Below, in pieces: positions 12,270 through 41,704 of a stretch of DNA of 64,000 bases (the first letter of the stretch is position 1; every line of letters starts with the position of its first letter). A program made the position numbers and the translations under genes. The stretch spans positions 1 to 64,000 of the IMG/VR virus record IMGVR_UViG_3300025012_000047; one strand, given 5' to 3'. Origin of the DNA: a virus. The notes under the pieces were generated by a model. The model did not search any database and was not told the origin of the DNA. It saw only the letters and a program-made list of their open reading frames with translations.

Positions 12270-14400
12270 ATATTTTATATTTTATATTGTGTTTGTGTTG
12301 ATAATGGTATAGTGATTTTATTATGATAAACTGTATTAGTATAGATGTGATTTATTAGCGTTTGTTTATAATCTGTATTACTACAGCAAATTGTATGCCA
12401 ATGTAAAAATTGATTAGATTTGATGTATAAGTGTAAATATAAAATTATTGTTTGAGACGCGCAGAAAGTGCCTTTTAAGACGTTTGAGGTTTGGAGTGTT
12501 ATATTAGTATGTAAAACTTTATTTTAAGGTTTATACTAAAATTTTTCTACACGTTGTCGGGTGTGTCGTGATTTAGGTGTTTTGGTATGGGATTTGATTA
12601 GAATTGTTTTAATTTGTTTGGCTTATAGTGTAGTAAATTAATTGGGTATAATTAGATTTATATCTTATGTAATTAGTATGATATAAATAAGATTAATGTA
12701 TAGTTATTTAGTATGGATTAAAATGATTTAATGCTTAGTAGTTTAGTTTAGTTTAGTATAAATTTATTTATAGAAGAGTATATTAGTGTGGATTAATGTA
12801 GAGTATAATTGTATGATATAAAATTTAATATGGTTATTATGATCATGTAATGTGATTAATTTGATGGTATCTGTGGGATATGGCATGGTGGCAGTATATA
12901 ATTGTTGTAAGTATGTTTTATGTAGTTAGTATCTTTTATATATTAGATATACATTTGTATACTGTAAGTATTGTAGCGCGTATTGTTAGATTATGAGTGT
13001 AACATTGTTACGTTTAATGTTTACAGCGTCAACATTAGTAAGTGTTCAATAATTCCGGCCATGTTATAGATTCCGACTATTTTGGACGTTATAACGCACA
13101 ATAGTATCAAGGTCCAATAATTTACTCATTAACTCCATTTAACTCCATTTTAACCCAATCAAATCAATTCGACAAATCATTACCGACTGCAGCCGATACA
13201 ATCCCAGGACATTATCCGATCATAATTACCTGCCTCATATTTGCCCTTCTAAGTTCCTCAAAATCATTCCGAGTATAAAAGTAAGGCCCAATTCTTCTTC
13301 AATGTGACACAAGTGGATACTGTAACATTCAGTAAATAGTAAAAACCCTTGGATAATGCGGGTTGTAGGGTTCGGCAGTTAATCGGCCCATGATGTTTTC
13401 AGTTGTTCATAAGCAAAGCTAATAGACAAAACATGTGCTAATGTTAGCTTTCAAAAACCATGCCAACTTTAGCATAGGTGGGGCATAGATTACAAATTAT
13501 GTTCCGACATGATTCGACATTATGTGCAGAGTACATGAAGGCTTAGACCAATTTTACTCCGATAATCGATCACACTTTAACAAATTTGTCAATAGTAAAT
13601 ATAAAAATTATTTAAAATATTTTTATTCTCTTAAATTTTCATCCTCTTAAAAATCTCTAATTTCCCTTTCGTTCTAACATCGCAAAAACATAATCATCAC
13701 AACAATTTCCAACATAATAAATCCACATTCAAAATCACAAAACTTCATAAAAGTCAATCAATTTTACAAATAAATCTCATAAAATAATATAAAATCTTAA
13801 CAAATCTCTCACGATTAAAACAACCAATAATTCCTACTATAATAATGTTTTTCTGGCATATCCAATTACCATAAATCAATCATAAATTACATCTCAAAAT
13901 AACCCTCCATATTAAAATCAAAATCTAATTATCATAAAATTAATAAATTCCATCGAACAAAAATATCATACACAAATTCATAATTATTCACTCAAACAAA
14001 TCACAAATATCCCATCAATATAATCCAATAAACAACTTCTAAACCCTTGATCCTACAGCATTTTCAACCCATCATAATATTCCTTCTACTATATGTTTAC
14101 ATTATAAATCGAATCAATTATCTCTCATATACGACACTCTAAAAAAATTGGTGAAAATATTTTTCCTAATCAAAATAAATTTAAAATCTAAAAATAATCC
14201 ATCTCAAATCATTCATAAAAATTTACCACAACCCAAAAAATCTAATAATCCCTATACCCTTACTCTCACAACCATTACAGCAAATCACTCGGACAAAGTG
14301 CTATACTAATAATACTTCATCCGTACAAATCTCTGTAATACTACTCTAACAATACATTCAAGGATTTATAAAATAATTCCTTTGGTAAAAATTCCTGTAT
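12270..14400. other. Large non-coding divergence region with GT-rich left arm and CA-rich right arm (possible genome end, pac site or origin)
   Basis: No ORF of 60 aa or more; transcription diverges here; composition flips near 13050-13100. Confidence 0.5.
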
Positions 14401-14434
14401 AATAAAATTTATTAAATACTAAAATAAATTTTTA

Positions 14435-14463
14435 TTGACATCAACAATGTATAATGATATTAT
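14435..14463 (+). promoter_or_regulatory. sigma-A promoter for the MazG/rSAM/SerRS-like operon
   Basis: TTGACA-17 bp-TATTAT with extended TG. Confidence 0.65.
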
Positions 14464-14517
14464 ATTCACAGGTACAAATCTGAACAAAATAAGTATCTAG
14501 AAAGGAGCAATCCCTAA

Positions 14518-14718
14518 ATCATTCAATATCCACAAAACAACTATAAATTTCAATTACATTCTCAATAATATATTCTGTACATATTCATTCCATAAAGACA
14601 AAACATATCTACTGAAATTTATCATGTAGAATCTGGTCATGGAATAGATCAAGCAAGATTAGCAGTAAAGAGTGAGATGGAAAAGTATCTTGAGTATTTG
14701 ATATCAGCAAACATATAA
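14518..14718 (+). pseudogene. Small stop-interrupted ORF (two in-frame TAA)
   Basis: AAGGAG RBS, ATC start; IIQYPQNNYKFQLHSQ*YILYIFIP*RQNISTEIYHVESGHGIDQARLAVKSEMEKYLEYLISANI*. Confidence 0.4.
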
Positions 14719-14752
14719 ATAAAAATTAATAATATCTAGAAAGGAGTTAATC

Positions 14753-15004
14753 ATGAAATTCCACAAAGCAATAATACAAAAAGGAATCTATGGCGAATTA
14801 TCAAAAATTAAAGAAGAACTAGATGAAGCATACGATGCAGAGTCTCAAAACCAAGACTTAATGCTATTAATAGAATTATCAGATATTATTGGTGCAGTAG
14901 AGGGAGTATCTAAGAAATACGGTTTTACATTAGAACAATTAATGGTATTTGCAAGACTTAGAAGTTTGGTTGCAATAGAAGAAATGAAAGTTGAGGAGAA
15001 TTAA
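14753..15004 (+). CDS. MazG-like all-alpha NTP pyrophosphohydrolase
   Basis: KIKEELDEA...IELSDIIG (EExxE...ExxD). Confidence 0.65.
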   Translation: MKFHKAIIQKGIYGELSKIKEELDEAYDAESQNQDLMLLIELSDIIGAVEGVSKKYGFTLEQLMVFARLRSLVAIEEMKVEEN

Positions 15005-15005
15005 A

Positions 15006-15788
15006 GTGGAATACAAAGACTTTATCATAATATTATCATCTTATAAATGTAATAAGGATTGCCCATATTGTATAGCTAAAATAGAAAAATTACCTGAAGT
15101 CAATGAAGATTTGATTAAATTTAAAATTCAAATTGATAAACTCATTCAAAATAAAGCAAAGTTCAAATACTTTGTATTAAGTGGAAATGGTGAACCATCC
15201 TACTATACATATGAATTCCTAAAAGAAATTATATCAATCGTGACTAATTCAGGAATATTTGAAGATTATAGAATCCAAACATCAGGTAATCTATTTCACA
15301 ATGATAAATTATTTGACCTATTCCAAGATTGGCTTATAGAAATTACAAGAGTAAGTCAATCATATGAAGTTGATAGTTCTGTTTTACACTATAAAAATGA
15401 TTATATTTTAACTCAAAATTTCTATAATGCAAGAATTAGATTGAATTATGTGTTGCTTAGAAATTTATCTTCTAATATTAATCGCGATATTAAGAAATAT
15501 TTAATTCAATATAGAAATATTGAAACTATTGCTTTAAAAATATTAGATACACAAGAAACCCAAGATGATAAATATACTAAGTGGATATCTGAAAATGGGT
15601 TAACATATAATGATGTTGACACAACCAGATTTGTTTTAGATACAAGTTTTGATTATTTAGGATATGAATTTAATAATCATATCTGGAATCACAATGGAAA
15701 ACAAATTTCAATGTTTAGTAACAAAAACTACAACAAAGATAAGACAATTCATAACTTAGTATGGTATGGAGATAAATTAATCTACTAA
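15006..15788 (+). CDS. Radical SAM enzyme
   Basis: CNKDCPYC (CxxxCxxC), LSGNGEP, IQTSG; GAGGAG RBS before GTG 15006. Confidence 0.85.
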   Translation: MEYKDFIIILSSYKCNKDCPYCIAKIEKLPEVNEDLIKFKIQIDKLIQNKAKFKYFVLSGNGEPSYYTYEFLKEIISIVTNSGIFEDYRIQTSGNLFHNDKLFDLFQDWLIEITRVSQSYEVDSSVLHYKNDYILTQNFYNARIRLNYVLLRNLSSNINRDIKKYLIQYRNIETIALKILDTQETQDDKYTKWISENGLTYNDVDTTRFVLDTSFDYLGYEFNNHIWNHNGKQISMFSNKNYNKDKTIHNLVWYGDKLIY

Positions 15789-15807
15789 AAGAAAGGAAGA
15801 ATATAAA

Positions 15808-16479
15808 ATGAAATATAAAGTAGAAAGTGGTGTCTATAATTTAGGATTTGAATTATCTCTATTAGAAAAGAAACTATTTATAGAATTTGAAGATATGTTA
15901 GATGGTAAGGGGTTTAGATATTTATCCATCCCAAGTTTGACAAGATGGAATAATTTTGAAAGACAAAGTATTGAAGATATTTTTAAATCTCTTTCTGTAG
16001 ATCATATACATAATTTATCAGGTTCGGCAGAGCAAGGAATATTACAATATTTTTCAGATTCTATTGTTGAACTACAACTTATTTATTCTAAAAACCAATG
16101 TTTTAGACATGAGAATTATGGTTATGAAGGATTAAAGAGATGCAAAGAATTTGTTAAACTTGAACAATTTTGTTTTTGTAATGATTATGATTGGAAAGAA
16201 AATTTTGATTTATTGCTTACTAATGCAACATCTTTTCTTAATAAATATAATATTGAATTTAGAGTTGTAGATGTTAGCAAATTAGATTTAGGATATCACA
16301 TTAAGAAATATGATATAGAAGTAAAAACAAAACAATATGGTTGGATGGAGACTCATAGTTGTACTTATTTTGGTGAAGAACAAAGTAAAAGATTTGGGAT
16401 TACAGGAGCAACCCATACTATATCAAACACTGGTATTGCGTCTCCTAGAATATTGATACCATTTATTGAGATGATGTAA
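15808..16479 (+). CDS. Seryl-tRNA synthetase-like catalytic core (class II aaRS paralogue without the tRNA-binding coiled coil)
   Basis: SAE (TxE), CFRHE...GLKRCKEFVKLEQF (motif 2), KYDIEV, ETHSC, HTISNTGIASPR (motif 3); only 223 aa. Confidence 0.85.
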   Translation: MKYKVESGVYNLGFELSLLEKKLFIEFEDMLDGKGFRYLSIPSLTRWNNFERQSIEDIFKSLSVDHIHNLSGSAEQGILQYFSDSIVELQLIYSKNQCFRHENYGYEGLKRCKEFVKLEQFCFCNDYDWKENFDLLLTNATSFLNKYNIEFRVVDVSKLDLGYHIKKYDIEVKTKQYGWMETHSCTYFGEEQSKRFGITGATHTISNTGIASPRILIPFIEMM

Positions 16480-16525
16480 GTAGTAAATATATTTAAATTT
16501 ATGTAAATATATAAATAAAAATATG

Positions 16526-16554
16526 TTGACATAATTATTTTTGTATGGTATACT
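16526..16554 (+). promoter_or_regulatory. sigma-A promoter
   Basis: TTGACA-17 bp-TATACT with TG. Confidence 0.7.
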
Positions 16555-16745
16555 TATTAAGTGAGGGATAAATATCAAATAAATTCAGAAAGGAGGGAGA
16601 TTGTATTGATGATACAAATTATTCTATTGCATATATTCCTATTACAATTACAAATTAATATTGTTGCTAGTGGTTTTACATAAGTATAAAAATAAAATAT
16701 TCCTAATAAAAATAAAATAATAATTGATAGAGGAGAGAAGATTAA

Positions 16746-17435
16746 ATGACAATAGGAATATATGGAATCACAAACAAGGAAAACAATCTAATCTATATTG
16801 GTGAAAGTAATAACATAGAAAGACGTTGGGAAGAGCATGTAGATGATCTAAACAATAATTCTCATTGTAACTATAAACTTCAAACAGCATGGAATACATA
16901 TGGTAAAGATAATTTTACTTTTGAGATATTAGAAGAAATACAAAAAATAGACAATAACCATTATAAAACAATTATGCAATTAATATATCTAGAAGGAAAA
17001 TACATAGATCAATATGACTCAATTAATAAAGGATATAATATTGAGAATACTATAGAGGAAGTCCTTAGTGGTAGGAAGATAATTACTAGCGGAAGTATTG
17101 ATAGAAAATATTTAGCAAGATTAATAAATAATAATGGTTTAAATGCTAAAGTAAATAAGTTCCCAAGTCTTACTAATACATATTCAGAATTAAAAAAGGA
17201 GGGCTATGTATTAAAATCTCCCACTCAAGAACTATTGTTGAAAGGGGTAATAAAAGAATACAACGATAAATATTATATAAAAGAAGAACTTATAGAAGAT
17301 GGATATTTTATAAATGGAAAGAGTAGGCCTAAAGATAAATTTAAATATTACGTTTTTGTAACAACTAAAGGAAAGCAATTTATTATTGATACACTAGAAT
17401 TAAAAAATAATAAAATTAAACAAAAAACAAATTGA
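16746..17435 (+). CDS. GIY-YIG endonuclease with C-terminal KilAC-like segment
   Basis: GIYGITN...YIGES..IERRWEEH; C-terminal FVTTKGKQFI. Confidence 0.8.
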   Translation: MTIGIYGITNKENNLIYIGESNNIERRWEEHVDDLNNNSHCNYKLQTAWNTYGKDNFTFEILEEIQKIDNNHYKTIMQLIYLEGKYIDQYDSINKGYNIENTIEEVLSGRKIITSGSIDRKYLARLINNNGLNAKVNKFPSLTNTYSELKKEGYVLKSPTQELLLKGVIKEYNDKYYIKEELIEDGYFINGKSRPKDKFKYYVFVTTKGKQFIIDTLELKNNKIKQKTN

Positions 17436-17971: not shown

Positions 17972-19120
17972 ATGAGTAGTATTACGCCAGAGGAATATTA
18001 TGTTAAATTACCTAATGATTTTTATGATAATCTAAGTATTTCTAATGAAGAGATGACCATATTAATATTATTGTATAGAAATTACCAACAATATAAAAAC
18101 CTTGGATTATGCTCTATTCAAATAATATGTGATCTCATGAGAATCAACGTATCAAATAATAGAAAATTAATTTCAACTATTAAAGATACAATAATAGAGT
18201 TAATGAATAAGGGTTACATAATAAAATTGTACAATCTATATTGCAAAGATCATGATAATAATGGCAACAAATTATCTATTAATTCTATAATTAAAGATAA
18301 GGATTCTACATTTTATGTTGAATTAATACCACCTCCTGAGAATGGTTATTTCAAAATATTTGATGAAGAAATTAATTACATATTTGAAGAATTAGCATCT
18401 AAAAATCTAAATAAGTTTAATATTATCAGATATTTTATCGCTTGCAGAAGAGTTTCTAGTAATGAGAGCAACTTTGGGTATTTAACTCAAGGAAAATTAA
18501 AAAAGTTAGTTAATGATTCAAGAACCATTCAGAGATACAATAAGATATTGCAAAATGATTTGCATTTGATTAGATTTAATAATAGTTATTTAACTCCTGA
18601 CAAAAATTATTGTACTACATACATAGGACATTGGGATGATGAAGCAAACTTTAATAGACAGTTGGAAACAGAAATTATTGGTAAGGGATTAATATATACT
18701 GATAAAACTCAATCTAATGAAAGAAGGAGTGTTCAACAAAAGATAAATAATATAGATAATTTAACATTAGAAGAATTGGAGGAATTGATAAAAAAGAAAA
18801 AGGAATTAGAGTATAAAATGGTTGTTAAAGAGGAAAGTAAAGATAATAAGGTTGATATCAAAGGGAAAGGACTTCAAAATAAGAAACATAAGCCATTACT
18901 TATACCAAAAATATATAATAAAGATAATGAAGAACCTGATATATTTGAAGATTTATTTGGTGATGAGGAAGAAAATGATTATTGGGATATGAGTAATCTA
19001 ACAATTGAAGAACAAAAAGCATTACAGGAAATAGAAGACTTAAATTGCTCACAAATACCTTTAGATGTATTACAAATGATTGAGAATGAATTGAATGAAA
19101 TAAAAGAGGATGAAGAATAA
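17972..19120 (+). CDS. Putative replication initiator / winged-helix protein
   Basis: YVKLPNDF N-terminus, two wHTH-like blocks, next to iterons; acidic tail. Confidence 0.55.
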   Translation: MSSITPEEYYVKLPNDFYDNLSISNEEMTILILLYRNYQQYKNLGLCSIQIICDLMRINVSNNRKLISTIKDTIIELMNKGYIIKLYNLYCKDHDNNGNKLSINSIIKDKDSTFYVELIPPPENGYFKIFDEEINYIFEELASKNLNKFNIIRYFIACRRVSSNESNFGYLTQGKLKKLVNDSRTIQRYNKILQNDLHLIRFNNSYLTPDKNYCTTYIGHWDDEANFNRQLETEIIGKGLIYTDKTQSNERRSVQQKINNIDNLTLEELEELIKKKKELEYKMVVKEESKDNKVDIKGKGLQNKKHKPLLIPKIYNKDNEEPDIFEDLFGDEEENDYWDMSNLTIEEQKALQEIEDLNCSQIPLDVLQMIENELNEIKEDEE

Positions 19121-19896
19121 TGAGTAGTAATTATATTTATAAAATGTTTGATAAGAATAATGAAATTATATACATAGGTAAGACAATTGATATTGATCAA
19201 CGTATAAGGCAACATTCGTTAGATAAAGATTGGTTTAAAACAGTTAGTAAAATATATTATGCGGAGTGCTTAAATAAAACTGATATGGATATTTATGAAA
19301 TATATTATATAAATAAATTAAAACCATTACATAATAAACAATTAGTAAATGGTGTTGGGTTTAGTATATTATTGGACGAACTTGATTTTATTGAGTACAA
19401 AAAAATAATAAAACAAAAATCAAATGTTAAACAAAATAATTACGGTAATACTTATTGCTATAATGTAGGAGAAAATTTTATAGAAAGTGATAATATTTTA
19501 AAATTTTACAAAAATAATCCCGTATTATCTAAAGAGTGGGAAGAATTATTAAAAGAAAAACAATTTTTAAGAGGAAAATACCATCCTTGTACTTTTGATC
19601 GTATTGAAATTAATAAAGGATTATTAATTTTTATTCCATTTGATAAAATGGGAATGTATGATATATCATTTGAACGTTTTATTAAGGATATATCTAATAA
19701 AAATATGCTATCATTAAAATATCTTCCGCGTGATATTGTTGATTATATAAATTATGATTTGATTGATCAAATGTCTAAAATTAAAGTAACAAACATGTTG
19801 AAAATCGATATAGAAGAAGATTGGTTTCTTGGTGAAAAATCAAAATGTGTACATAGTATAAACAATGTAGTTGTTGATGTATTTTATAAAATATAA
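19120..19896 (+). CDS. GIY-YIG nuclease domain protein
   Basis: YIYKMFDKNNEIIYIGKT..IDQRIRQH. Confidence 0.75.
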   Translation: MSSNYIYKMFDKNNEIIYIGKTIDIDQRIRQHSLDKDWFKTVSKIYYAECLNKTDMDIYEIYYINKLKPLHNKQLVNGVGFSILLDELDFIEYKKIIKQKSNVKQNNYGNTYCYNVGENFIESDNILKFYKNNPVLSKEWEELLKEKQFLRGKYHPCTFDRIEINKGLLIFIPFDKMGMYDISFERFIKDISNKNMLSLKYLPRDIVDYINYDLIDQMSKIKVTNMLKIDIEEDWFLGEKSKCVHSINNVVVDVFYKI

Positions 19897-25436: not shown

Positions 25437-26138
25437 ATGGTGGAAGATATGGTAAATCAAATTTTCGGAAGGTTAACTGTGTTACAAAGAGTTGAAAATA
25501 AAATATATAAAAATTCACAACACTCACAATGGTTATGTGAATGTTCTTGTGATAATAAAACTCAAATAAAAGTTACTAGAGATAGTTTAAAATCTAGTAA
25601 TACAAAATCATGTGGTTGTTTACAAACAGAAATTCAGAGAGAACGTGCAATTAATCGCAATACTACACATGGGTATGGAAATTCACGAATATATAAGACC
25701 TTAAAAAATATGAAAAGAAGGTGCTATAATCCTAAATGTGAAGCATATAAAGATTATGGAGGAAGAGGAATAATTGTTTGTGAAGAATGGTTGAACAACA
25801 TTGAATCATTTTATAACTGGGCAATAAGTAATGGCTACGATGATAATCTCACAATTGAAAGAATTGATGTAAATGGTAATTATAGTCCAGAAAATTGTTG
25901 TTGGATACCGCAATCTAAACAAAACCTCAATCGTCGCAATAGTATAAATATCACTATTGATAATATTACAAAAAATTTAGTTGATTGGGCAAAAGAGTTT
26001 AATATAAATCAAAATACTATCAAGGGGAGATACCAACAAGGAGTCCCAATAGAAGATTTATTTAAACCAATTAATAAAAGTAAAAGCCGAATAAAGACGA
26101 ATATTTGTCAAACAGACGCTGTATTGGAAGTGGTTTAG
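25437..26138 (+). CDS. HNH-type homing-endonuclease-like protein
   Basis: FGRLTV, WLCECSC, TKSCGC, YGGRGI.VCEEW, TIERIDVNGNYSPENC. Confidence 0.8.
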   Translation: MVEDMVNQIFGRLTVLQRVENKIYKNSQHSQWLCECSCDNKTQIKVTRDSLKSSNTKSCGCLQTEIQRERAINRNTTHGYGNSRIYKTLKNMKRRCYNPKCEAYKDYGGRGIIVCEEWLNNIESFYNWAISNGYDDNLTIERIDVNGNYSPENCCWIPQSKQNLNRRNSINITIDNITKNLVDWAKEFNINQNTIKGRYQQGVPIEDLFKPINKSKSRIKTNICQTDAVLEVV

Positions 26139-27652: not shown

Positions 27653-28654
27653 TTGGGAGTAAAATTACAGTCTACAGATATATATAAACAGAAAGTTTTT
27701 GCAAAGCGTGGTGATAAGGTTGAGATATTGAGTGAATATCTAGGAGGTACAGAACCAATAGATTTTGTTTATCATTGTGAAAAACATGGCGATACATATA
27801 AGACTTTAAATGCTAAGAATGTATTAGCAAGTTGTTTTCAACCTTGTAAACAATGTGATATTGAATTGAAAAGTTCGAAGGGCAAAAGTAAAAACATGAA
27901 TAAAGATTATCAATATAATAGACTAAAACAATTTTGTGAATCTAAAGGAGGTAAATTAATAAGTACAGTATGGACTATTGCTAAAGATACATATGAAATT
28001 CATTGCGGAAATCCTGAACATCCGAATTTCTTTAGCAATGCAGACGGAGTATTGAATAGTGCAGAAAATTGGTGTCCGTATTGCTGTGGTAGAAAAGGTA
28101 ACTTTGAGAAAGAAATAACAGATATCATAAATAGTAAAAATGGCATATTGCTTACTCCTTATAAATTATCTACAGAACATGTATCTATTAAATGTAATAT
28201 ACATAATTATATTTGGCCTATGATGCCATTGAACATAAAGAAAGGTAGGTGGTGTCCGGTATGTAATTTGCCATATTCAGAAAAAGTTCCTTATGACTAT
28301 CTTGTAGATAATTATCCGAGTTACAATATTAGAGTACAATATACTTTTGATGATTTGATGGGAGAAAACGGAGAACATTTAAAATATGATTTAGGAATAT
28401 TAGATGATACTGATAAATTGTTAGGCATAGTAGAAATAGATGACGATGAACATAGATACAATCATACACAACCAAGAAGAGTAAAAGCAAGAGAAAGAGA
28501 TAAAACAAAGGATAAATATTGTAAAGATAACAATATACCATTGTTTAGACTTGAATATTATAATGGTAGGAAAATGTTCAAAGATCGTGACTGGTACTAT
28601 AATTACATACATAAAAATTTGAATGAGTTCCTTAATTCTATAATTAATAAATAA
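27653..28654 (+). CDS. Homing-endonuclease-like protein (zinc ribbons plus PD-(D/E)xK/Vsr-like nuclease)
   Basis: WCPYC/WCPVC repeats; LKYDLGI...VEIDDDEH...DKTKDKYC. Confidence 0.75.
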   Translation: MGVKLQSTDIYKQKVFAKRGDKVEILSEYLGGTEPIDFVYHCEKHGDTYKTLNAKNVLASCFQPCKQCDIELKSSKGKSKNMNKDYQYNRLKQFCESKGGKLISTVWTIAKDTYEIHCGNPEHPNFFSNADGVLNSAENWCPYCCGRKGNFEKEITDIINSKNGILLTPYKLSTEHVSIKCNIHNYIWPMMPLNIKKGRWCPVCNLPYSEKVPYDYLVDNYPSYNIRVQYTFDDLMGENGEHLKYDLGILDDTDKLLGIVEIDDDEHRYNHTQPRRVKARERDKTKDKYCKDNNIPLFRLEYYNGRKMFKDRDWYYNYIHKNLNEFLNSIINK

Positions 28655-35728: not shown

Positions 35729-36013
35729 AAGGCAACTGCAATAACACATAGTGGTTGCCTTCATACATTACGACAAACAGGGAGCAAATGACCGTCTCCC
35801 TTACATATCAATATGGAAGTAGTTTCGTAAACTGACTTCATCGAGGCACATGGTAAATATCCTCTAATAATACTGATTAGTCCTTTATGGACTTCACGTT
35901 GACTACGTGGTAACTGATTTGGCATTACGCCAGTGGTTTGCTCATTTATCCATTTAAAAAATGAGTATATTATACTAAATAGGTTTTGCCGTATAACCTA
36001 GATAAAAACGGCA
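35729..36013 (+). ncRNA. GC-enriched multi-hairpin region ending in a pseudoknot (putative ncRNA)
   Basis: About eight consecutive stems, e.g. AAGGCAAC/GTTGCCTT, GGGAG/CTCCC, AGTCC/GGACT, CACGT/ACGTG; TAGGTT/AACCTA with TGCCGT/ACGGCA. Confidence 0.4.
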
Positions 36014-36105
36014 TTAACAATCAAAGAAAAACTGTATTTTATTGGAGGAGTCGATATTCTCTTACTGTAGAGTCGATGAAATTTAAAAAGGAGATGGTTA
36101 GATTA

Positions 36106-36789
36106 TTGTTAAATACTAAAAATAACATTGGCATAATTAAAGTTGATGATAATCACAAAAATATTGTTTATGAAATCAAAGATAATGGATGTCATGAAAT
36201 AATAAGTCATGCTTCAAGTGGCAATAGTGGATATTTCAAAATTAAAATCAATGGTAAGGCGTATGATATACATAGATGGTATTATATTAAAATACATCCT
36301 GAAATTGATATGACAAATTTGGATGTCAGACATAAATGTGATAATAGACAATGTATTAATCCAGATCATTTAGAACATGGTACTAGAAAAGAAAATGTTA
36401 ATGATATGTTGATAAGAAATAGACAATATTCCGAGTTGTCTGAACAAGAAGTTTTTGACATTATTAATAAATATAACACAGGAATTTATAATTATGCTGA
36501 TTTATCTAAAATTTATGGAGTAGTAAGTAACACAATCAGACATATTTGTATGGGGAAAACTTGGAAGCATTTAACAGGAATTAAATTGGATGATTATCAA
36601 TCAATACATAATAAATCAGAAAAACAATCTGACGAAAAATATATTTATTGGGATAAGATTAATTATAGATGGAGGGTAGTTATCTTAGTGAATGGAAATA
36701 AAATAAATATAGGACGATTTAAAGATTTGAGAGAAGCAATTACAGAAAGAGATAAAGGTTTGCTTAGATATAACAATATCATATTATAA
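36106..36789 (+). CDS. HNH homing endonuclease with HTH and AP2-like domain
   Basis: VRHKCDNRQCINPDHLEHGTRKENVND; YIYWDK...WRV...IGRFKD; RBS favours TTG 36106. Confidence 0.85.
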   Translation: MLNTKNNIGIIKVDDNHKNIVYEIKDNGCHEIISHASSGNSGYFKIKINGKAYDIHRWYYIKIHPEIDMTNLDVRHKCDNRQCINPDHLEHGTRKENVNDMLIRNRQYSELSEQEVFDIINKYNTGIYNYADLSKIYGVVSNTIRHICMGKTWKHLTGIKLDDYQSIHNKSEKQSDEKYIYWDKINYRWRVVILVNGNKINIGRFKDLREAITERDKGLLRYNNIIL

Positions 36790-40774: not shown

Positions 40775-41704
40775 ATAAAGGTTATGTTTATACTAAAATG
40801 AGTGATGAGTTCGAAGTGAAAGTAGATGATTTATCTAATGGTTCTCATGTATTAGTTGAAGTGAGATGTGATGGTTGTATGGGGTATAGATACTTTTGGT
40901 AAAGATTTTCTTGATAAATATTGGGATTATAATAAAAACACAGTTAATCCTTGGGAGATATCAAGATGTGCAAACAAACCAAAAGTATGGATTAAGTGCC
41001 AAGAAAAAGATTATCATGGAAGTTATCCAATAATTTGTAATGGGTTTATAAATAAAGTTAGATGCCCTTATTGCCATAGTAGAGGTAGTGTACATAAGAT
41101 ACATAAATTAGATAGTTTAGGATCATTATTTTTAAAATCTGCTGCAGTTTGGTCTAATAAAAATGAAAAAACACCTTTTGAATATTCCCCTTTTAGCATT
41201 AAAGAAGTTTGGTGGAAGTGTCCTGATGGTAAACACGAAGATTATAAAAGAAAAATATCTGACTCAAATACTTACAAATTTAGATGTCCTGAATGTCAAT
41301 ATTCTAAAGGAGAAGATAGAATAGGAATACATTTAATAAATAATAATTGGAAGAAAATCATACAAGAAGAGTATGAAAAATTATTAAAAATAAATGAAGA
41401 TAATTATTATATTCCACAAAAAACTTTTAATAGATTATTAGGTTTAGGAGGAAAATTATTATCTTATGATTTTTATATCCCTAAATTAAATTTACTTATA
41501 GAATATCAAGGAGACCAGCATGAAAAACCTATAGATTTCAAAGGTAAAGGTAAAAAATATGCAGAGGAACAATTTGAAATTCAAAAAGAACATGACAAAA
41601 GAAAGAAAGAATATGCATTGCAAAACGGATATAATTTTCTAGAAATTTGGTATTGGGAATTTGATAATATTGAAGAGATTATAAATAATTATATTAATGT
41701 ATAA
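40744..41704 (+). pseudogene. Zinc-ribbon PD-(D/E)xK endonuclease with deleted and frameshifted N-terminus
   Basis: Orphan N-terminal frame WSSSNKKWYVNKGY...EVRCDGC joins out of frame to ORF 40868-41704 (SYDFYIP...IEYQGDQH). Confidence 0.6.

Follow-up and report, generated by a model that had tools for sequence, protein, structure and literature searches.

A phage gene module linking a MazG/HisE-like protein, an armless seryl-tRNA synthetase-like core and, in some lineages, a viperin-sized radical SAM enzyme

We analysed positions 1 to 64 kb of the 99,170-bp viral record IMGVR_UViG_3300025012_000047, which is about 54% complete by the CheckV estimate. This whole 64,000-nucleotide stretch is called the window below. 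Our subject is three packed plus-strand genes encoding a MazG/HisE-like protein, a radical S-adenosylmethionine (radical SAM) enzyme and a protein resembling the catalytic core of seryl-tRNA synthetase (SerRS), here called the mini-SerRS. These genes and the features around them are as follows.

14435-14463, plus strand: sigma-70/sigma-A-type promoter-like site (TTGACA, 17-nt spacer, TATTAT, with TG), identified by consensus match and scoring best in 13800-17000 (11/12).
14477-14709, plus strand: decayed remnant of a 103-aa open reading frame (ORF), found by tblastn and covering most of a 290-nt leader.
14753-15004, plus strand: MazG/HisE-like protein of 83 aa, similar to all-alpha nucleoside triphosphate (NTP) pyrophosphohydrolases.
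15006-15788, plus strand: viperin-sized radical SAM enzyme, 260 aa from GTG (the program-called ORF from TTG 14991 has 265 aa).
15808-16479, plus strand: mini-SerRS, a minimal SerRS-like class II catalytic core of 223 aa without the tRNA-binding arm.
16526-16554, plus strand: second promoter-like site (TTGACA, 17-nt spacer, TATACT, with TG; 11/12), the downstream boundary of the three-gene unit.
16746-17435: GIY-YIG homing endonuclease gene, following the promoter-like site at 16526-16554.

An earlier note, made from the letters of this DNA, had described three tightly spaced genes behind one promoter, and this layout was confirmed: the three plus-strand ORFs are separated by gaps of 1 nt (MazG-like to radical SAM) and 19 nt (radical SAM to mini-SerRS) and follow the promoter-like site at 14435-14463. 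A skew switch and a non-coding zone come before them, and together they form the first plus-strand unit beyond these. The unit is bracketed by the two best promoter-like sites of 13800-17000; the total number of such sites in this interval is not above that of shuffled sequence, so only the sites at 14435-14463 and 16526-16554 stand out. The radical SAM protein most likely starts at GTG 15006, which lies 1 nt past the MazG-like stop codon with a GAGGAG 7 nt upstream and is the start in homologue clusters and in the ESM Atlas record. In the leader, tblastn with an intact copy of the 103-aa ORF (L021:3603-3911) finds two pieces in different frames, with 49% and 92% identity. Only close relatives have an intact copy, located 5′ of the MazG-like gene, and we do not count this ORF as part of the module because it is missing from all more distant lineages. 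The 290-nt leader has no Rfam match at E ≤ 1 and consists largely of this broken ORF, which rules out a T-box, riboswitch or other known RNA at this position.

Comparison of gene neighbourhoods shows that the three enzymes are coupled. Our lineage set comprised 93 loci from which ordinary SerRS genes had been removed; at 80% identity these gave 21 lineages in which the sequence extended far enough upstream. A MazG-like gene lies immediately 5′ of the mini-SerRS gene in 20 of the 21, often overlapping it by a few bases; the automatic count was 18, and L002 and L090 were added because their overlapping genes had been missed. The radical SAM gene is present in 8 of the 21 lineages, either between the other two genes or fused upstream. 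Fusions occur in several arrangements: MazG-radical SAM (P0142, P0144 and P0146), the reverse order radical SAM-MazG (P0189, P0200, P0234 and P0239), MazG-mini-SerRS in two separate lineages (P0118 and P0264), and radical SAM-MazG-mini-SerRS in one 564-aa protein (P0241). Within the window's clade, ratios of nonsynonymous to synonymous substitution rates of 0.10 for the MazG-like gene, 0.12 for the mini-SerRS gene and 0.14 for the radical SAM gene indicate purifying selection. By gene order, fusion and selection, the three enzymes are thus physically and evolutionarily coupled, and because other phages fuse them into single proteins, the three genes act as one unit. The trio picked out in the earlier note therefore does recur elsewhere, as a conserved core of MazG-like protein and mini-SerRS to which the radical SAM enzyme is an add-on. 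We also considered whether the radical SAM gene might be an unrelated insertion, as its presence in only 2 of 9 IMG/VR loci and the other inserts found elsewhere could imply; the fusions and the wider co-occurrence rule this out. Clustering of neighbours across 20 lineages of the window's family found nothing conserved beyond the MazG-like (with or without radical SAM) and mini-SerRS families, and no carrier-protein gene, link to elongation factor P (EF-P) or YqeY-like gene is conserved beside the module in these lineages. A carrier protein as acceptor, one of the possibilities raised earlier, is accordingly disfavoured, as no such gene accompanies the module.

The mini-SerRS matches PF00587 (3.5e-11), TIGR00414 (5.7e-17) and SerRS structures in the PDB (8e-9), and it scores 61.8 bits against TIGR00414, short of that family's cut-off of 301.65. 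Clustered at 90% identity, its family gives 233 or more clusters; at 50% identity and E ≤ 1e-30 there are about 45 representatives, and nearly all of these proteins are 190-250 aa long. In an alignment of 22 members with 52-90% identity and 46 invariant columns, class II motif 1 (P42), motif 2 (F99-R100-x-E102) and motif 3 (S212-P-R214) are all invariant. S73, E75, R100, E102, F115, E119, E181, S184, T208, R214 and the GSAEQ string are invariant as well, and these align in order with Thermus thermophilus SerRS residues T225, E227, R256, E258, F275, E279, E345, S348, T380 and R386, which we take from the SerRS structural literature to contact seryl-adenylate and metal ions. On this assignment, every mappable residue that contacts seryl-adenylate appears to be kept. 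The differences from canonical bacterial SerRS (TIGR00414) lie elsewhere, beyond the partnership or fusion with a MazG-like domain. The alignment spans T. thermophilus residues 159-393, and when 26 canonical SerRS are aligned with the mini-SerRS family, nothing in the family matches the first ~165 canonical columns, so that the arm and ~55 further N-terminal residues of the core are gone. The motif-2 loop, nearly invariant in the canonical enzymes, is 5 aa shorter and variable in the mini-SerRS family, and 8 aa are deleted before motif 3. The description of a protein that retains the TxE-like (GSAEQ), motif 2 (FRHE) and motif 3 (SPR) residues and has lost the N-terminal coiled coil thus holds for the window copy, which begins at the equivalent of T. 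thermophilus residue 159. With the arm and ~55 core residues lost and a short, unconserved motif-2 loop, canonical tRNA charging is not expected, and sequence comparison supports the view that the mini-SerRS is not a canonical synthetase.

The 83-aa partner matches phrog_6408 at 8e-24, and 13 of 15 members of its family match Pfam PRA-PH (best E 0.0011). When the family profile was compared with the PDB, HisE (2a7w) and MazG (1vmg) ranked first, with the EExxE and ExxD motifs aligned. The predicted structure has three helices with a predicted local distance difference test (pLDDT) score of 94.6, and the top Foldseek ranks are HisE (2a7w and 1yvw), Escherichia coli MazG, HISN2, Mycobacterium tuberculosis MazG and SSO3215, at root-mean-square deviations (rmsd) of 1.1-1.8 Å over 49-56 residues, 20-25% identity and E ≥ 0.085. 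All 15 aligned sequences share E21, E22, E25, E41 and D44, as well as S17 and K18. Fold and acidic motifs together argue that the protein is MazG/HisE-like, a probable member of the all-alpha NTP pyrophosphohydrolase superfamily. It resembles MazG and HisE (PRA-PH) in its helical fold and EExxE...ExxD motifs and differs from them in its length of only 83 aa, in its three helices, in falling under the Pfam gathering score (15.7 bits for the window copy versus 21.3) and in its dedication to a synthetase-like partner. Its recurrence in the gene neighbourhoods makes it the apparent hub, or common partner, of the module. The suggestion that this protein serves as acceptor of the amino acid is not favoured, since its invariant residues are those of the MazG/HisE active site; a role as the tRNA arm of a split SerRS, supplied in trans, is ruled out by its MazG/HisE-like sequence, motifs and fold. 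In some relatives the MazG-like partner carries extensions that match no Pfam family (150-244 aa; L006:5265-5999, L044:3870-4562, L052:3796-4248 and L175:2357-2980), and the mini-SerRS gene of L006 and L052 is followed by one for a conserved protein of 199-230 aa that fits no known family.

The radical SAM protein has three cysteines in all, arranged as C20-x3-C24-x2-C27 in a single [4Fe-4S] cluster motif, together with a GNGEP motif; C20, C24, C27 and G65-N-G-E68 are invariant across its homologues. The window copy matches PF04055 at 5.4e-5 (23.9 bits against a cut-off of 29.5), and the homologues carry PF04055. The predicted model has a pLDDT of 90. Judged by the cluster motif, the GGE-like SAM motif and the partial TIM barrel of this model, the protein is a member of the radical SAM superfamily. 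Pfam, TIGR and PDB matches, the CxxxCxxC and GNGEP motifs and Foldseek thus bear out the identities first given to all three proteins, MazG-like, radical SAM and SerRS-like. Foldseek places MoaA (1e-9) and viperin-like enzymes (2e-8) first, and VIA Z scores range from 16.5 to 17.7 across GDGT-MAS (17.7, the highest), MoaA, SuiB and the viperins, with viperin at Z 16.5 and an rmsd of 3.2 Å over 222-228 residues. Among these Z-tied fold neighbours, only viperin shares both the single cluster and the size. There is also a weak match to the PADLOC pVip model (1.8e-5), and one relative carries a cytidylate kinase fusion. Because single cluster, size and fold agree with viperin, a viperin-like action is possible, and the enzyme may work like viperin. 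The score against viperin model NF038283, 16.2 bits where the cut-off is 180, is too low for the protein to be filed as a viperin, and it further differs from viperin and pVip in its Z ties with MoaA and others, its phage origin and its MazG-like and SerRS-like fusions. An ESM Atlas search returned generic radical SAM clusters only. An identity as an NrdG activase is ruled out by an NrdG2 score of 19.5 bits against a cut-off of 131.

Bacterial relatives of the radical SAM enzyme point in the direction of nucleotides. From a scan of 185,579 species genomes we took the best 80 of 95 loci with such relatives. Five of these encode phage-like radical SAM-MazG fusions with a mini-SerRS; the other ~75 encode a 277-aa radical SAM protein in gut bacteria with small genomes, without MazG-like or mini-SerRS genes. 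In 57 of the 80 loci the gene order is PnuC, nucleoside-2-deoxyribosyltransferase-like (NDT-like), radical SAM, the partners being a PnuC-family transporter (Pfam 2e-38) and a 174-aa NDT-like protein (1e-6), and a protein with an NrtR winged-helix domain often lies 3′ of the radical SAM gene. The relatives also include a cytidylate kinase-radical SAM fusion of 492 aa (L162:5338-6813) and radical SAM-NDT-like fusions of ~450-470 aa (L140:5932-7347 and P0237). All partners of the bacterial relatives handle nucleosides or nucleotides, and because the radical SAM enzyme is tied to nucleotide-handling domains in this way, a nucleotide-directed pathway is the best reading. From its gene content, the gut-bacterial set itself looks like an uncharacterised operon for nucleoside salvage or nucleoside modification. 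Its conserved order is found in metagenome-assembled genomes of Alphaproteobacteria, Bacilli, Clostridia and Gastranaerophilales (L095-L174, e.g. L098:4931-8655 and L101:2558-6834), often with NMNAT-like, F420-ligase-like and RdgB genes near the PnuC, NDT-like, radical SAM and NrtR-domain genes. A role of the bacterial enzyme as a replacement for ribonucleotide reductase is ruled out by the presence of NrdD in 5 of 5 genomes tested; the large subunit of class I or II ribonucleotide reductase was found in none of these 5 genomes.

In cultured phages, the window's own family is represented by the pair only, without the radical SAM gene, in Bacillus phages G and BpSp. The pair of phage G (L001:1-3349) sits just 3′ of an NAD-salvage cluster of NAPRT, KptA-like, NMNAT and NAD synthetase genes, and the PnuC and NrtR settings of the bacterial radical SAM relatives are likewise of NAD type. 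A remoter, 190-aa form of the mini-synthetase is much more widespread. In phage phi92 it is gp196, which aligns with the window's family in hhalign at E 3e-4 with its motifs in register and is preceded by the MazG-like gp197. The phi92 genes (gp197/gp196; phrog_6408 and phrog_4806) thus share the pair, its order and the aligned SAEQ, C[FY]R.E and K.E motifs, and differ from the window in their more diverged core, in having no radical SAM gene between them and in a YqeY-like gene after the pair (gp195; L012:4825-5256; Pfam 5.3e-7), which is followed by nrdD. The remoter form occurs in 273 phage records (112 Escherichia, 61 Acinetobacter, 13 Caulobacter, 8 Microcystis and others), and relatives of the window's MazG-like protein occur in 182. 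In Caulobacter phage CcrBL9 (L176) the pair is embedded in a tRNA gene cluster with over 18 members, and Acinetobacter phage Lazarus carries it in the nrdC/glutaredoxin region. The pair is therefore not rare: hundreds of cultured phage genomes contain its remoter form, annotated misleadingly as "histidyl/seryl tRNA synthetase", and the phage genes so named are very probably not translation enzymes.

We propose, with a probability of about 40%, that the module transfers serine to a nucleotide processed by the MazG-like enzyme and, where it is present, the radical SAM enzyme. The mini-SerRS, with its fully conserved SerRS active site, would first form seryl-AMP from ATP and L-serine and would then pass the seryl group to an acceptor other than tRNA, because canonical recognition of tRNA-Ser is impossible for a protein of this architecture. 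The MazG-like enzyme, to judge from its conserved EExxE...ExxD metal site, would convert an NTP to a nucleoside monophosphate (NMP) and pyrophosphate. Where present, the radical SAM enzyme may alter the NTP beforehand, as its fold neighbours and the cytidylate kinase, MazG-like and deoxyribosyltransferase-like fusions of its relatives suggest. The likeliest acceptor would then be the nucleotide released by the MazG-like enzyme, since an NMP is similar to A76 at the end of a tRNA, and a seryl-(modified) nucleotide would result, which might act in host takeover or counter-defence or serve as a precursor of nucleic-acid modification. The earlier note had envisaged a pathway to an aminoacylated or modified nucleotide or protein outside canonical translation; of this, the functional unit, the non-canonical SerRS and the link to nucleotides stand, and the carrier protein and the 83-aa acceptor do not. 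More specific, and doubtful, is the idea that phages make a novel class of metabolite in which serine is esterified or amidated onto an NMP remodelled by the radical SAM enzyme and trimmed by the MazG-like one. If it were true, this aminoacyl-nucleotide could mimic the 3′ end of tRNA or an aminoacyl-adenylate, in host takeover or counter-defence, and a two-gene version of the pathway would operate in hundreds of well-known coliphages and in Acinetobacter phages.

Several points weigh against serine transfer to a nucleotide. Serine esterified at the 2′ or 3′ position of a free nucleotide would be unstable, and it is hard to see how a phage would profit from it. Over half of the lineages have no radical SAM gene, so the core chemistry must use an ordinary metabolite. 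The likeness of the radical SAM enzyme to MoaA and viperin is tied, at Z scores within 1, with its likeness to GDGT-MAS and SPASM enzymes, neither of which acts on nucleotides, and each sequence match behind the MazG-like identity is weak when taken alone (Pfam 15.7 versus 21.3 bits; Foldseek E 0.085). Finally, the tRNA-gene cluster of CcrBL9 and the YqeY-like gene of phi92 hint at tRNA in a way that serine transfer to a nucleotide leaves unexplained.

These two contexts lead to the main rival, a non-canonical tRNA function, which we regard as unlikely. Here the mini-SerRS, assisted in trans by the MazG-like protein and in some phages by a YqeY-like protein, would charge or re-charge tRNAs in a non-canonical manner, the targets being phage tRNAs or tRNAs with 3′ ends damaged by host toxins, from which the MazG-like enzyme would strip a blocking pyrophosphate. 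Besides the position of the pair within the CcrBL9 tRNA cluster, this proposal can call on the YqeY-like protein that follows it in phi92, a domain with a known link to tRNA, and on an active site that, including the surroundings of the acceptor pocket, stays very SerRS-like. However, the tRNA arm is gone and the motif-2 loop is short and variable, neither a YqeY-like protein nor any other conserved partner recurs in the 20 lineages, and no tRNA gene was found in the full 99-kb record. Free nucleotides are also a better fit for a MazG-like protein that occurs fused to a radical SAM enzyme of viperin size, the relatives of which carry fused CMP kinase or NDT-like domains.

Two further proposals appear improbable to us. 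Canonical SerRS, as in T. thermophilus, makes diadenosine tetraphosphate (Ap4A) from seryl-AMP and ATP, and an armless SerRS might likewise be a dedicated synthase of Ap4A or other dinucleoside tetraphosphates (Np4N) in dinucleotide-polyphosphate or alarmone metabolism, with an NTP attacking seryl-AMP, the MazG-like enzyme shaping or limiting the nucleotide pool and the radical SAM enzyme supplying an unusual NTP. The coupling of the three domains by fusion and the cleavage of NTP-type pyrophosphate bonds by MazG-family enzymes would suit such a scheme, but there would seem to be little point in fusing a synthase to an enzyme that hydrolyses similar substrates, the serine-binding residues are kept more strictly than one would expect of a protein that only carried an adenylate, and none of our data are specific to Np4N. 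The second proposal is aminoacylation of a protein in the style of EpmA/EpmB acting on EF-P, in which serine or an amino acid modified by the radical SAM enzyme would be attached to a host or phage protein, possibly the 83-aa one. EpmA, a truncated class II synthetase, does work with a radical SAM enzyme, EpmB; the small partner is always adjacent to the mini-SerRS, and its S17 and K18 are invariant. Its invariants, the lysine included, nevertheless coincide with the MazG/HisE catalytic motifs, and an acceptor fused to its own ligase and to a radical SAM enzyme would be unusual. Nor is the radical SAM enzyme similar to lysine aminomutase (LAM): the EpmB model matches it at E 0.022 only, and LAM structure 2a5h reaches Z 12.7, below viperin and MoaA.

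Least probable is a regulatory pseudo-synthetase that acts only as a sensor of serine and ATP and exerts allosteric control over the MazG-like and radical SAM enzymes, as HisZ is the regulatory synthetase-like partner of HisG: the small protein's best structural matches are HisE enzymes and PHROG and GenBank call relatives of the mini-SerRS "histidyl tRNA synthetase", but every aligned family member keeps the catalytic arginines of motifs 2 and 3 together with the metal ligands, and the likeness is to SerRS, not HisRS.

In kind, serine transfer to a nucleotide would belong to something already known, a truncated synthetase core that acts off tRNA with partner enzymes. Truncated aminoacyl-tRNA synthetase paralogues with non-tRNA acceptors include EpmA/PoxA with EpmB, GluQRS/YadB and the SerRS-like amino acid:carrier-protein ligases. 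Like these, the phage protein is a bare catalytic core without a tRNA-recognition domain, encoded together with partner enzymes, and EpmA/EpmB also involves a radical SAM enzyme. Unlike them, the phage core is of bacterial SerRS type rather than LysRS, GluRS or methanogen-type SerRS, and its partner is a nucleotide pyrophosphohydrolase with neither a carrier-protein gene nor a link to EF-P. Relative to EpmA/EpmB specifically, the phage radical SAM enzyme is viperin/MoaA-like instead of aminomutase-like and the core is SerRS-like instead of LysRS-like. The partnership of MazG-like protein and mini-SerRS, with or without the radical SAM enzyme, its fusions and its spread among model phages appear to be undescribed. 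Full-text searches of the literature found no functional study of the module, and one genome paper merely annotates MazG genes near "SerRS" (PMC8953757).

The pair is found in experimentally tractable phages of E. coli, both phi92-like and phAPEC8-like, and in T4-like phages of Acinetobacter, and the natural fusions, including the 564-aa radical SAM-MazG-SerRS protein, are ready-made constructs for biochemistry. Finding the product would show a class II synthetase core in a new role away from tRNA and possibly reveal a new nucleotide made by phages. It would also give a function to a family of viperin-sized radical SAM enzymes that is common beside PnuC transporters in gut bacteria.

The sequencing runs listed with the window's DNA all belong to one groundwater study and are DNA runs; no RNA run is listed for it. 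The window is AT-rich (GC content 23-35%), and its other genes encode helicases, methyltransferases, PhoH and many HNH and GIY-YIG homing endonucleases. The homing-endonuclease genes are unusually dense amid replication genes, at 16746-17435, 19120-19896, 25437-26138, 27653-28654, 35986-36789 and 40868-41704.

Near-identical metagenomic copies in which at least one of the three genes is frameshifted or truncated occur at L053, L027, L032, L033, L015 and L016, through either decay or assembly error. At the junction between the MazG-like and mini-SerRS genes, inserts other than the radical SAM gene are also found: a 202-aa cysteine-rich ORF with small ORFs at L007:4717-5999, and a CxxCxGxG zinc-finger protein (99-130 aa) accompanied by a 217-240-aa protein that belongs to no known family at L051:4011-4968 and L054:3940-4995. 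From these arrangements, the junction seems to be a hot spot for insertion.

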